A stretch of 64,000 bases of DNA from Eledone cirrhosa (Eukaryota): positions 20,460,001 through 20,524,000 of the forward strand of contig OZ024756.1 in assembly GCA_964016885.1 (NCBI GenBank). The letters run 5' to 3'. The position numbers were made by a program, and so were the translations under genes. Positions 9,906 to 61,925 of this stretch are shown in pieces. The notes below the pieces were generated by a model. That model saw only the letters and a program-made list of their open reading frames with translations, was not told the DNA's origin and did not search any database. The stretch's first letter is position 1, and each line of letters starts with the position of its first letter.

Positions 9906-9973
9906 ATATATATATATATATAGAAATGGCTTTCTACAGGACTAGAACTGTTTCATTCGGGAGAAATCATCAG

Positions 9974-10024
9974 GGCTTCCTGACGATTTCTCCTGAATGA
10001 AACAGTTCTAGTCCTGTAGAAGCC
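9974..10024 (+). ncRNA. Type-I hammerhead ribozyme motif with a closed helix III (family 1)
   Basis: ggcttc-CTGACGA-t.ttc-tcct-gaa.t-GAAA-cag-ttctagtc-ctg-TA-gaagcc: 6-bp helix I, GUA triplet. It is the right arm of a palindrome at 9921-10032. Confidence 0.8.
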
Positions 10025-10275
10025 ATTTCTATATTAAATATTTATACTCTGCTATGCAGTGAGTACCTTACTTACTGTGGCTACCCCCGATTGAACTCGG
10101 TGTATATATAGAGAGAGAGAGAGAGAGAGAGAGAGAGAGAGAGAGAGAGAGAGAGAGAGAGAGAGAGAGAGAGAGAGAGAGTAATGTGCAGTTACTGTAG
10201 GTTCACCTGAGTGAGCACTCGATGTGTAGTTTCCCGCCTGTAAAGAGGTGTAGAACTAAACAGAGTGTAATTATA

Positions 10276-10466
10276 ATAATTGTTTCTACTTTAGGCACAA
10301 GGCCAGCAATTACCCAGTACATTACTGGTACTTTATTTTATCGACCCCCGTAAGGATGAAAGGCAAAGTCAACCTCGGCGGGATTTGAACTCAGATCGTA
10401 AAGGGACGTAACTATGCTGGAAAGCATGGTGTCCGACCCTCTACCGATACTGCTAATCCACCGCCC
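10276..10466 (-). mobile_element. SINE family A
   Basis: Full-length reverse copy. Confidence 0.9.
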
Positions 10467-10485
10467 TTTGTAATTATAATAATAA

Positions 10486-10727
10486 AAGGAAGATTTGTTA
10501 TGTCTTCATTACGTTTAGTGAGTAGTGACGCGTGTTTTGCTATTGATCAGCTCAAGGTTCGATCTGTATCGATCTAACCCAATTCTGTCATTACCACAGA
10601 AGAGGTCCGACGAGCTTTTAATTCCAGAGTCAGGCTAGATCAATACAGACCAAACCTTGAGCTGATCAATAGTGAATCACGCATCACTTCTCAATAAGCA
10701 TAATGAAGACATAACAAATTGTCCTTG
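10486..10727. mobile_element. Diverged inverted repeat of a Penelope-like terminal fragment with a decayed hammerhead (family 3)
   Basis: Arms about 10486-10588 and 10625-10727. The same family occurs at 32850, 44370 and 52780. Confidence 0.65.
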
Positions 10728-10824
10728 TATTGTTATATATATATATATATATATTTCACACACATACATATATATAATAAATAAGAGAGACGGTTTTATT
10801 CGTACATCCTCATTTATTTACTAG

Positions 10825-10860
10825 TTTGTTATACGTATTTCCACGATATCTTCAGACGAA
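10825..10860 (-). ncRNA. Minimal hammerhead-like motif
   Basis: ttcgt-CTGAAGA-tatcgtg-GAAA-tacgta-TA-acaaa. Palindromic helix III ATACGTAT; helix II is very short. Confidence 0.5.
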
Positions 10861-11142
10861 ACGAGATGTAATTTTCCATTGATATGCTACTAGTCCGATG
10901 TGTTGTTAACCTCGCCGACCAGTACTCATGTGGAGTGCTTCACGTCTGTTTAAGAATAAGTCAGATTTTTGATCAACCAACTTTATATATATATATATAT
11001 AAATATATATATATGCGCCACCAGTTCTTTGAGAAAACAACACCACACTTCGGTTCGGGACAGGGCACATTAAGGGACCGAAATAATGGAGGTAAACTTT
11101 GTTCCATCATTATGTTTTTCTGTTTTTTCAGTTCAAGTTCTA

Positions 11143-11201
11143 GCTGTCTGATGAAGTCATAGCTGTTGAATAATGGCTATCACCGAAATATATATTACAG
11201 C
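11143..11201 (+). ncRNA. Type-I minimal hammerhead (family 2, C-C mismatch class)
   Basis: gctgt-CTGATGA-agtcatagc..gctatcacc-GAAA-tatata-TT-acagc. Confidence 0.75.
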
Positions 11202-11970
11202 GAATATGAATAAACAAAGTTAATTTTAACCTTGCTTTTTATATATATATAGATAGATAGATAGATGTGTGTGTGTATGTGTGTGTGTGTATGTATAGTA
11301 AGTCCTGACCTTACGAACATCCTACTTATGAACTTCTACAGATACAAACTGTCTCACAAAGAAACGAGAAATATTTTGTCTGGGTCTGTTTTTGTGGGCT
11401 CTTTCGGGCCCTGGGTTCCTTCTTTTGCAGCATAAAATCAAGCAGAAATCGTACCCACTGCATGGGATAGATAGACAGAAAGATAGATAGATAGATGGAT
11501 AGATAAATGGACGGACAAATAGATAGAAAGAGAGATAGATAGATAGACATACAGGTAGATAGACAGAGACATAGATAGAATAACAGACAGACAGGCAGAC
11601 ATACAGATAGATAGATACACAGGCAGACATACATACAGACACATAGATAGAAAGATAGATAGACAAACACACAGAGACAGACAGACAGGCAAACATATGT
11701 ACATACATAAAGACAGACAGACAGACAGACAGACAGACAGACAGGTAGGTAGGTAGAACAAAGTCATGGTAATTTAGTAGATATACGTCTGATAATAAAA
11801 TAATTAAAGGATAATATGGAAGAAAATTATTGTGATTGATTTCAATGACTATGAAATGAAATATGACAACAGCTGGAATGATAGGTGGGAGGGGGGGAGG
11901 TGCTTGAGGATTAAAATATCTTTACAGAGAATATTGTAATCAAGGAAATATTAAACTTTTTATTATAAAC

Positions 11971-58567: not shown

Positions 58568-58814
58568 TGTATATATATATATATATATAGATATATATAT
58601 ATAGATATAGATATATAAATATATATATATAGATATAAATATATATAGATATAGATATATATATCAAAATAAGAGTCATTTATCATAAGAATAGAGAAAG
58701 AACTGAATACCTCCAAATATTTAAAGGATAAACGTTTCATGAATATGTACCCCATACTTTGCAGTTGTACAGACTTGGACTATTCCTTCTGTGACATCTT
58801 TAAGGACAGACATT

Positions 58815-58934
58815 TTTCTCTGAAGAGTCTTATAAGTACATAGTCTTACAAGAGTCTTATAAGTACGGTGGAATATAAACATATATCTGCCTGCTGAATT
58901 ATAAATGTACTTAGACGAAACACTGTGTTAGAAA
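58815..58934 (+). ncRNA. Hammerhead motif with a long helix II insert (family 6)
   Basis: tttct-CTGAAGA-gtct..aagtaca[insert]tgtactt-agac-GAAAC-actgt-GTT-agaaa. Confidence 0.65.
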
Positions 58935-58946
58935 TAAATTTTGTTA

Positions 58947-59175
58947 TTAACTCTTTAGCATTTAAACTGGCTGAACCTGGCCAGAATTCTTTCACCTCTT
59001 TCTGTTCAAACTGGTTGTAACTGGCTGCTCATACTGATGTTAAGGTATTGTTCTCAAAATAAATAATATCAAAATCTCATAGATTCGATATGATGTAAAA
59101 TAATTATGTGAGGTAAAGTCTTTACTGTGAAATTATAATAGTATACATAGAGTAATGTAAATGCTAAAGGGTTAA
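58947..59175. mobile_element. piggyBac-like MITE
   Basis: TTAA-ctctttagcattt ... aaatgctaaaggg-TTAA. Confidence 0.8.
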
Positions 59176-59402
59176 ATGTCTTGCTTTCTCCACCATATAT
59201 CTGTGTGTGTGTGTGTGTGTGTGTGTTGTGTGTGTTGTGTGTGTTGATGTTGTGTGTGTATGTGTGTTGTGTGTGTTGATGTTGTGTGTGTATGTGTGTG
59301 TGATATAGGTGCCCCAGCATGGCCATAACCCACTGGTTTTGGACCTTTAGAAAGTGAATGGAAAAAACAATGTATATATATAAGTAGCATTAAAAGACTT
59401 AC

Positions 59403-59566
59403 CGTAAATGAAATCCAGCATGAGAAAGTCTGCTATAATTCCAAGAGATATACATGGCAATGTGAAGTAAGCCATAGTGTTAAATGTTTATGAAGATAAG
59501 AGAGAGGAAGAGAGGAGTCAGATCAGTCTTTTTAATCTTGTCCATCTTTTCACAACTGGTTTACAT
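59403..59566 (-). other. Candidate exon, possibly 5' UTR plus start codon (ATG 59475)
   Basis: tcttttctctccag acceptor and G/gtaagt donor. All frames are closed at the 5' end, then MAYFTLPCISLGIIADFLMLDFIY plus a phase-1 intron. Confidence 0.45.
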
Positions 59567-60489
59567 CTGGAGAGAAAAGATATAAGACAAGAAAAAAAGA
59601 TTATATTTTGCCACATGTCAATATTGGATTCTGACAAAGGTAAACAATAAAAATAAAAGACAAAGTCAATGTTTATTTTAAAGATAAAGCATAATCATCG
59701 GAAGTTCTCTGCCAACCCTTAGTATATTACTGGTACTTATCGTATGCATGCTTGGTCTCTTAACTACCGAGGGAGTCGTAGGGACACTGTATGTCAATAC
59801 AGTGTTTCTAAGGACATTTTTAAACCTGGCAGAGCCCATTTTTTCCCCAGGTTTCAATACAATAGCTTTCTTCCAGACAAGTATATATATATATATAAAT
59901 AGAGAGTGAGAGATATGTTTCTTTATTAGCCACAAGGGCACAAAAGAAGGGGACAAATACAAAGAGGGAAGTTTACATACAATAAAAATGTGTAAAATAT
60001 TATCACAAATGCAATTTAAAAGTTAATCGATTTTTCCCCAATAGGGGGAGACATTTCATATGGGTAACACATACCCCCGAAAAAATGTGCAACCCTCATC
60101 TCCAGGAGTACGAAGAGTTTGTACCCCCTTTCCTCTCTTCCTCCTCAACCTACAGGCTGATATAGAGAGAAGGCCCATTCACGCCACTTTCACTCACCTT
60201 TCATAAAACTTGCTTGGGTACAGCACCTCTCTCTCCATCCTGATTCTTCTTCCAAAGTGGTATTTGATAGAGGAAGCAAGAAAGCATTATAGAAGAAAAA
60301 TCAAGTCCAGTACTTGACTGGTTCTTTTTTTTTTATCAACCTCAAATGGATGAAAGGCAATGTTGACCTTGATATGCTTAAATATAAACCGACCCCTCAA
60401 TTTTTTGTCTGAGAAATGAGCAAAAATCCAGATCTTATTTACATAGAATTTGAACTTGGTGAAAATTGTCAAAATATTGACCCCCGAAT

Positions 60490-61540
60490 AAAATATATAC
60501 TGTAGTATATATACAATATATATATAGTAGCATATAAATATATACACTGTAGTATATATATAATATATACAGTAGCATATATACAATATATATATAGTAG
60601 CATATAAATATATACACTAGTATAGATACAATATATACAGTAGTTTATATACTATATATATATAGTAGCATATAAATATATACATTACTATAGATACAAT
60701 ATATACAGTAGTATATATACAATATATACAGTAGTATATATACAATTTATACAGTAATATATATACAATTTATACAGTAATATATATACAATTTATACTG
60801 TAATATATATACAATTTATACAGTAGCACATATACAATATAAACAGTAATATATATACACTATATACTAGTGTATATATACACTAGTACATATACACTAT
60901 ATACACTAGTACATATACACTATATACACTAGTACATATACACTATATACACTAGTACATATACACTATATACACTAGTACATATACAATATATACACTA
61001 GTACATATACAATATATACACTAGTACATATACACTATATACACTAGTACATATACACTATATACACTAGTACATATACACTATATACACTAGTACATAT
61101 ACACTATATACACTAGTACATATACACTATATACACTAGTACATATACACTATATACTAATGTATATATTCACTATATACACTAGTACATATATACTATA
61201 TACACTAGTATATGTACAATATATACAGCAGTATATATTGTATACATACAATATATAAACTAGTATATATATATATATATATACAATATAAATGGCAGTG
61301 TATATACAATATATACAGTAGCATATATATAATATATATACAGTAGAATATATACAATATATACACTAGTATATATACAATATATACACTAGTATATATA
61401 CAATATATACACTAGTATATATACAATATATACACTAGTATATATACAATATATACACTAGTATATATACAATATATACACTAGTATATATACAATATAT
61501 ACACTAGTATATATATATATATATATATATATATATACAT
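60490..61540. repeat. TA-derived 20-22 bp minisatellite
   Basis: atatacactagtacatatacact variants. Confidence 0.95.
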
Positions 61541-61541
61541 A

Positions 61542-61925
61542 CAATGATATTAAATAAACGGAAACTATATTTATAAAACCATATTTATTTTATTATATAT
61601 ATTTTAAGGGTACCAAGACAACATTGGTACGCTTTCATCAGATAAAATACAAAGTTCGTTTTATAAATAGAGATGTACCCATGAAAATAATACCTTCACT
61701 ATCATAAATAGAGACGTACCCATGAAAATCATACCTTCACTAGCCACCATCCAGTGAATTTCCAACCGATAAGGTATTATTTTCCTGGGTACGTCTCTAT
61801 TTATAAAACAAACTTTGTATTTTATCTGATGAAAGCGTACCAATGTTGTCTTGGTACCCTTAAAATATATATAATAAAATAAATATGGTTTTATAAATAT
61901 AGTTTCCATTTATTTAATATCATTG
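61542..61925. repeat. 155-bp-arm inverted repeat with two hammerhead motifs (61586-61649 minus, 61818-61881 plus), both G12A
   Basis: Arms 61542-61696 and 61771-61925. tattttat-CTGATGA-aagcgtaccaa..ttggtaccctt-AAAA-tatata-TA-ataaaata. Confidence 0.9.

Follow-up and report, generated by a model that had tools for sequence, protein, structure and literature searches.

The window analysed here is a 64,000-nucleotide (nt) stretch of Eledone cirrhosa DNA (NCBI GenBank assembly GCA_964016885.1, contig OZ024756.1, positions 20,460,001 to 20,524,000 of the forward strand), and it carries hammerhead ribozyme motifs that are a real feature of a known kind. We consider it very probable that these motifs are hammerhead-bearing terminal repeats of Penelope-like elements (PLEs), mostly of the Hydra clade, which sit beside (TA)n runs, were likely copied from uncut RNA and, as lone copies, are mostly inactive by prediction. 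On its own, the window is ordinary transposon debris in the repeat-rich DNA of an animal whose assembly has 3.0 Gb, and its set of repeats resembles that of an octopus.

The window contains 31 CTGANGA heptamers. With a relaxed type I descriptor (CUGANGA, GAAA and a UH triplet in type I helix order, tolerating a single helix I mismatch and up to two in helix II, with or without one additional base after A9), 11 motifs passed, against 0.18-0.23 matches per window in local dinucleotide shuffles and a maximum of 2 in 400 shuffles. This excess bears out the original prediction, which a model had made from the letters of the window and which expected the motifs to outnumber those of shuffled sequence. 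Remnants added by homology raised the total to 23 motifs and remnants in about 12 sequence families, in line with its estimate of about 20 motifs from at least six families; 12 of the 23 copies fail the descriptor, being broken, partial or mutated in the core. All 17 sites it listed exist where it placed them: ten pass with an intact core (9974+, 11143+, 16428-, 16925-, 17172+, 45502-, 52401+, 52570+, 57357- and 58815+), three carry G12A (16204-, 61586- and 61818+), and four fail (10825-, with helix II collapsed; 32867-, with helix I broken; 33033-, with the 3' strand of helix I missing; and 52799-, with a CCGAUGA core and a broken helix I). The cuts it placed after 10018, 17221 and 52603 agree with our parse. 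The copies, lettered by family, and one coding remnant are as follows.

9929-9979, minus strand: family A mirror copy with helix I interrupted at the fold-back junction
9974-10024, plus strand: family A hammerhead with U.U at 10.1/11.1 and a helix III of 4 bp, cut after 10018; pairs 5'-to-5' with 9929-9979
10499-10587, minus strand: family E inverted partial copy, without the first core box
10600-10713, plus strand: family E copy, CCGACGA (U4C) core, second box decayed
10825-10861, minus strand: family G remnant, helix II collapsed; fuller relatives in loci L258 and L222
11143-11201, plus strand: family B2 hammerhead with an intact core and a C.C in its helix II; cut after 11196
16204-16239, minus strand: family C minimal hammerhead, G12A
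16428-16476, minus strand: family A copy, helix I cut short by (TA)n; passes the descriptor weakly
16566-16690, plus strand: family K remnant keeping the 3' half; full copies have a helix II of about 100-115 nt
16875-17062, minus strand: family B 3' end with an intact hammerhead at 16925-16979; putative Hydra-clade PLE
17089-17276, plus strand: family B 3' end with a hammerhead at 17172-17226, cut after 17221; inverted partner of 16875-17062
17391-17448, plus strand: family H hammerhead, absent from the original prediction, cut after 17444
21641-21751, minus strand: reverse-transcriptase thumb remnant of a putative Hydra-clade PLE, the sole PLE coding remnant found in the window
32867-32953, minus strand: family E copy, helix I broken
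33033-33080, minus strand: family A copy that stops directly after the cut site, joined to the upstream sequence of the E copy
44372-44451, minus strand: family E partial copy
45502-45537, minus strand: intact minimal hammerhead of family C, with an ACGU helix III and an additional A after A9; putative Neptune-type PLE
52401-52436, plus strand: family C hammerhead, one helix II mismatch
52570-52608, plus strand: family F hammerhead, cut after 52603; element of about 280 nt, no open reading frame (ORF) found
52799-52885, minus strand: family E copy, CCGAUGA core
57357-57425, minus strand: family D3 hammerhead, intact
58815-58934, plus strand: singleton candidate (I) by the descriptor alone, 90-nt helix II, no relative among the study loci
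61534-61696, minus strand: family D 3' end with a hammerhead at 61586-61649, G12A; putative Hydra-clade PLE
61771-61933, plus strand: family D 3' end with a hammerhead at 61818-61881, G12A; inverted partner of 61534-61696

The Rfam hammerhead models gave no match in the window at the gathering threshold, and an E-value run placed no hammerhead among the best 150 of 546 matches, where microsatellite-driven microRNA matches appeared. Descriptors allowing no mismatch found only 2-4 window motifs. Both outcomes follow from the fixed helix II mismatch that most families carry.

The fold itself is supported by covariation. Across 13 variants, 15 of the 18 pairs change on both sides (none of 500 shuffles reached 15) and 92.7% of cells pair, whereas slid controls drop to 26-46%. 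Position 10.4/11.4 is unpaired in 12 of the 13 variants. It is occupied by C.C in 19 of 28 recurring helix II types and, judged by eye, in family K, which lies outside that table; in family M it is C.U. The reverse transcriptases (RTs) of the mismatch-carrying families B, D2, M and K are only 47-56% identical, and thus the mismatch has been kept for a long time, with shared descent limiting the independence of these cases. Most families have helix III palindromes of 6-8 nt, no extra base and a variable 10.1/11.1 pair, which is U.U in the hammerheads of families A, F and H. In place of the short palindrome named in the original prediction, family A forms a helix III of 4 bp closed by a loop of 8 nt. 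The minimal fold with its extra base after A9 occurs in family C and in no other. The core of family E is most often CCGACGA (U4C, 13 of 29 copies), and CUGA occurs in six copies, as CpG decay would give. U4C has lower activity in vitro, yet enough for a viroid (Perreault 2011).

Further variants of the fold were also observed. Hammerheads of family K have a helix II insert of 100-115 nt (L011:6338, L019:4526, L021, L033 and L047), with a Hydra ORF link in L019 and an uninterrupted 727-aa Hydra-type frame in L011 that runs off the locus edge. A degenerate core first read for this family was rejected, the actual core being 100-115 nt upstream. Families with a covariant U3-A8 core occur at L231:2305-4889, L262:939, L238:2380 and 2975, and L036:3104. 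The L231 motif follows a Hydra-type ORF at a distance of about 1.15 kb, and an inverted copy is present upstream; the two copies in L238 are on the same strand, 595 nt apart. In families B and D, the helix III palindrome plus N17 is a (TA)n run, identical to the insertion target.

The origin of the motifs is best seen in longer copies elsewhere in the genome. Family B copies run upstream into a frame with RWK, DKT, CxCx5C and, at its C terminus, a nuclease of GIY-YIG type with CxxC and CxH; the same marks were described for the Hydra clade (Craig et al. 2021, PMC8557442). The nuclease-end signature (CxCx5C linker, GIY-YIG with CxxC and CxH, no CCHH) is present in four family B loci (L055, L056, L063, L064) and three family D loci (L127, L139 and L173, the last with RWR). 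The full unit runs hammerhead-ORF-hammerhead. In L173, family D hammerheads at 4903 and 8354 flank a Hydra-type RT/nuclease frame in a unit of 3,451 bp. In L175, family B hammerheads at 5132 and 8628, 3,496 bp apart, flank an RT frame, and the locus also has an inverted 5' copy; no nuclease match was seen in the L175 copy. Direct terminal repeats with a hammerhead around an ORF, an inverted 5' copy and a (TA)n target are documented by L173, L175 and L012, and the family D core is intact in the other 24 loci searched. By these motifs, families B and D would be Hydra-clade PLEs. In three loci (L171, L172 and L181), a GIY-YIG-type frame precedes family C by about 600 nt; L181 has a Cx4CxxC linker, and the motifs suggest a Neptune-type PLE. 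The linkage to Penelope ORFs that the original prediction foresaw is thus found at several loci each for families B, D and C and at one each for A and E. Its proposal of several Penelope lineages is supported, with the refinement that most linked families look like the Hydra clade and not like the minimal Penelope/Poseidon type.

Some candidate parents were discarded. For family A, L165/L166 proved to be a segmental duplicate and L167/L168 a 1.9-kb mixed tandem. An apparent long upstream homology of family F was microsatellite only.

The anatomy of the copies points to how they arose. For 58 of 75 motifs, a (TA)6 or longer run was found no more than 200 nt 3' of the cut; for random windows the figure was 261 of 1500 (17%). 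Opposite-strand pairs among 67 motifs (L032 left out) were 5'-to-5' in 12 cases and 3'-to-3' in none; the 5'-to-5' arrangement is the inverted-truncation signature of PLEs. No same-strand pair appeared in that count, which missed a 53-nt family A tandem in L016 (two hammerheads on one strand at 7762-7815, a natural dimer candidate). In the arbitrary stretches, 67 of 74 tails retain the 13 nt preceding the cut; copies span the cut site, and therefore the templates were likely uncut RNA. Families B, D, F and H each have two preferred 3' ends (B at +102-105 and +117, D at +106 and +229, F at +158 and +222, H at +107 and +150). The 5' ends also pile up, at -80/-81 in 12 of 34 family D copies, where the 5' repeat of L173 begins too, and at -101 to -106 in 10 of 24 family H copies. 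Preferred 5' ends and the start of L173 suggest run-off copies from the RNA start. A further pile-up in family A, at -54, was a reference artefact.

This is in line with the Anolis Poseidon element PAc (Frangieh et al. 2024, PMC11167929), which has two internal RT starts giving an optional tail and AT-rich targets, and for which uncut RNA was the main template in vitro. PAc belongs to another clade and has an ORF start that overlaps its ribozyme; the ORF of L173 starts some 250 nt downstream of the core.

Upstream of the family A core (L091-L114), we noted by eye a CCAAT box about 70-90 nt ahead and a TATAAATA box about 35-40 nt ahead, and short family A copies often start at TCAG about 10 nt ahead of the core. 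Taken together, these could possibly be an internal promoter.

We propose that the nuclease of the element nicks AT-rich DNA, as copy anatomy and the work of Frangieh et al. (2024) suggest, and that reverse transcription would then begin 100-230 nt downstream of the core, at either of two fixed positions, giving each family its two 3' ends. The products observed are mostly short copies that extend across the scissile bond, and an inverted 5' duplicate often accompanies them. Whether the preferred 5' ends mark the RNA start, so that many copies would be run-off copies of the first terminal repeat, is in our view evenly balanced. The ribozyme would be selected in the source elements, where stems covary and the core is fixed. 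We lean slightly towards weak cutting as a dimer through paired palindromic helix III strands, probably aided by the protein of the element. In folding predictions, the monomer helix III probability is at most 0.15 in all 11 motifs able to form helix III, and the palindromes pair with themselves, which agrees with the dimer model.

Dispersed copies would usually have no same-strand partner, and 5'-to-5' pairs are predicted to fold into long hairpins that bury the motif. The main hairpin of the window has a predicted energy of -328 kcal/mol with 96% of its bases paired. Adding upstream sequence brings the predicted helix I probability at 9980, 16974 and 17177 down from 0.82-0.96 to 0, and two of the three cut sites of the original prediction (10018 and 17221) sit in long inverted repeats, so their fold is predicted to be blocked natively. 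Helix I probability at 52575 drops likewise although it has no inverted partner; therefore, context matters generally. We found in the window no intact same-family, same-strand pair lying close together. From this and the loss of helix I in context, most solo copies would be inert, and selection appears to act on source elements. More speculatively, C.C at 10.4/11.4 might be a docking or protein-binding site that makes cleavage conditional, as part of an undescribed Hydra-clade fold that would dominate the densest hammerhead load reported, flooded by run-off copies of the first terminal repeat whose read-through RNA would give trans dimer partners and long double-stranded RNA throughout the transcriptome of the host; we hold this combination to be possible but doubtful.

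Several points weigh against the explanation by PLE terminal repeats. Family A has a single ORF-linked locus (L299) and family E another (L249), each with a Hydra-type nuclease upstream on the same strand; the parent search for family A used a query overlapping an inverted arm, which gave one usable locus. For families F, H, G, I and D3, no ORF-linked locus was found. Pfam gave one sub-threshold GIY-YIG match (E 0.003) among six proteins, and the clade calls consequently come from motifs and tblastn among the study loci. The covariation set consists of kin by descent and was chosen with a descriptor for which pairing is a requirement. The loci behind the 5'-end pile-ups were retrieved with queries requiring coverage to about -85, and the 5' repeat of L248 (family H) starts at -59, not at the family H hot spot near -104. 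Finally, cores differ less than stems and loops among copies (13 of 1623 against 86 of 5960, p 0.048; family H contributed a single copy). This could mean selection on the copies, and subfamily differences plus ascertainment explain it equally well.

The strongest alternative, still improbable in our judgement, is that most copies are not truncated PLEs and are instead independent non-autonomous elements of the retrozyme kind that cleave themselves, circularise and borrow PLE enzymes. Non-LTR (long terminal repeat) retrozymes are published as PLE derivatives and share with our motifs the type I fold, a very high copy number and PLE derivation (PMC7229834; 10.64898/2026.07.22.740005). Family F, an element of about 280 nt whose 5' end is fixed and for which 25 loci showed no ORF, would suit this alternative, as would family H with its ORF-less tandem unit of 1,804 bp, and L032:4783-7877 (G000:C9:15.00 Mb) holds 311-nt tandem units with a hammerhead in each. 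However, retrozymes form head-to-tail arrays, whereas window copies are monomers or inverted pairs, with no head-to-tail units of 150-450 bp in the window (the L032 array is of an unrelated family). Besides, families B, C and D extend into ORFs, and genomic copies do not start at the cut site. A retrozyme-like origin thus probably fits F, H and L032, not the whole set. The L032 array has an inverted layout, four units on one strand and two on the other, near GIY-YIG fragments.

It is very unlikely that the host has domesticated the motifs as signals for transcript cleavage or termination. The density is very high, the core is slightly better conserved than the stems, and AAUAAA occurs 5-10 nt past the cut in families B, D, H, E and G and at most 30 nt 3' of it in 8 of 30 clusters (2.0 when shuffled), clusters that are partly related and hence not independent. 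Against this stand the 12 of 23 window copies that fail the descriptor, the youth and dispersal of the copies (95-100% alike in family B), and the finding of no host exon among 111 filtered window ORFs, a filter that short exons would escape; no host gene was identified in the window. Chance matches, or miniature inverted-repeat DNA transposons mimicking hammerheads, can practically be dismissed: Rfam is silent at threshold, a strict descriptor finds two motifs and many copies are palindromic, but the shuffled and reversed-pattern controls (11 against 0.2; 108,725 against 132) and the covariation refute chance, and the arms are unequal and extend into RT/nuclease frames.

With the PLE terminal repeats as the preferred explanation, the next point is how widespread they are. 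The dense constellation of the original prediction is dense relative to its surroundings, with one intact motif per 5.8 kb in the window and 3 descriptor matches in 60 kb of flanking DNA, but when small-chromosome stretches were resampled, 28% of the draws reached at least 11 motifs per 64 kb. The clumps in the window consist of elements nested in each other's (TA)n tails; there is nothing special about this locus, and the feature is genome-wide.

To estimate the load, 75 arbitrary 10-kb stretches were sampled and extrapolated by strata to the genome. They held 84 descriptor matches (6.6 when shuffled), and raw extrapolation gave 3.0 x 10^5 motifs (bootstrap 2.0-4.1 x 10^5). The pattern CTGANGA-N26..36-GAAATRNNYATA has 108,725 matches in the whole genome, against 132 for a reversed-pattern control; of its 41 matches in the sample, 37 pass the descriptor. 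The sample had predicted 163,773, which is 1.5-fold over. A family A 27-mer, which covers only the 3' half of the motif, has 27,663 matches (control 0; 23,967 predicted). Since the sample over-counted one class and under-counted family A, the total was lowered, and the two calibration ratios pooled give about 2.2 x 10^5 motifs with a canonical core. A further 18 sample matches (0-2 when shuffled) belong to the long-helix, U3-A8 and U4C classes, and a few of these are false. The genome total is likely 2-3 x 10^5 hammerhead motifs, which puts the window at about twice the average, and more than 100,000 copies of one hammerhead design are present.

Published PLE hammerheads number about 2,000-9,000 per genome (Cervera and De la Pena 2014, PMC4209133), and the axolotl has 126,247 type I hammerheads (Cervera and De la Pena 2020, PMC7229834) in a genome of 28 Gb (Li et al. 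2026, 10.64898/2026.07.22.740005). One architecture alone reaches 36 per Mb here, against about 4.5 hammerheads per Mb in axolotl, a rough comparison because the descriptors differ. Perreault 2011 discarded matches mispaired at 10.1/11.1, and a rule of four pairs in helix II retains 22 of our 84 sample matches; thus, the usual searches would miss much of the load.

Hammerheads of PLEs, hammerheads of the Hydra clade and an octopus Hydra family are already published, the last listed in the tables of Craig et al. 2021 (PMC8557442). Our elements share with those Hydra-clade PLEs, including Hydra-1_Obim of Octopus bimaculoides, the protein marks, the (TA)n targets and the inverted 5' copies, and U.U at 10.1/11.1, as in families A, F and H, already stands in most Hydra rows of their File S2. 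They differ in size (units of 3.45-3.5 kb with 3' untranslated regions of 1-1.8 kb, where the published Hydra elements are generally below 3 kb) and in far more numerous families and copies; C.C at 10.4/11.4 and the U4C core, present here, were not seen in that table. A 13-nt motif of Hydra-1_Obim is absent from the study loci. With the minimal PLE hammerheads (PMC4209133), the motifs share the type I topology and a palindromic helix III; in both, most copies are solo, opposite-strand pairs are 100-700 bp apart and a U3-A8 core variant occurs. Family C resembles them further in its extra base after A9 and G10.1-C11.1, whereas most families here have the longer helix III, no extra base and a variable 10.1/11.1.

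As far as our literature searches go, the load is new, and so are the helix II variant with C.C and the family with a U4C core. No published report of such a load or fold was found in that literature (Dfam and Repbase lay outside the search, and supplements beyond that of Craig et al. may list families), and the main text of an O. vulgaris repeat paper contains neither 'ribozyme' nor 'hammerhead'. Published assays of PLE hammerheads show weak cleavage that depends on dimers or protein and is dispensable for insertion in vitro. This genome has more than 100,000 natural copies, which fall into dozens of covarying families and include U4C, U3-A8 and 100-nt-insert variants, making fold rules, selection and intron strand bias testable with high power.

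The remaining features of the window are minor. At 42585 on the minus strand, CTGATGA is followed by GAAA 19 nt on, without helix I or relatives, probably by chance or as a decayed copy, and an inverted repeat at 13484-13685 has CTGAGGA boxes without a matching second box. Positions 57918-58451 hold a Tc1/mariner-type transposase fragment (weak DDE_3 match), and 6228-6830 and 19633-20298 hold what we take to be tail fragments of an RTE-like long interspersed nuclear element. A 49-bp satellite of 67 copies occupies 1907-5202, a 6-kb AT-rich microsatellite 34695-40865, and a near-perfect hairpin of 100 nt 41533-41632.

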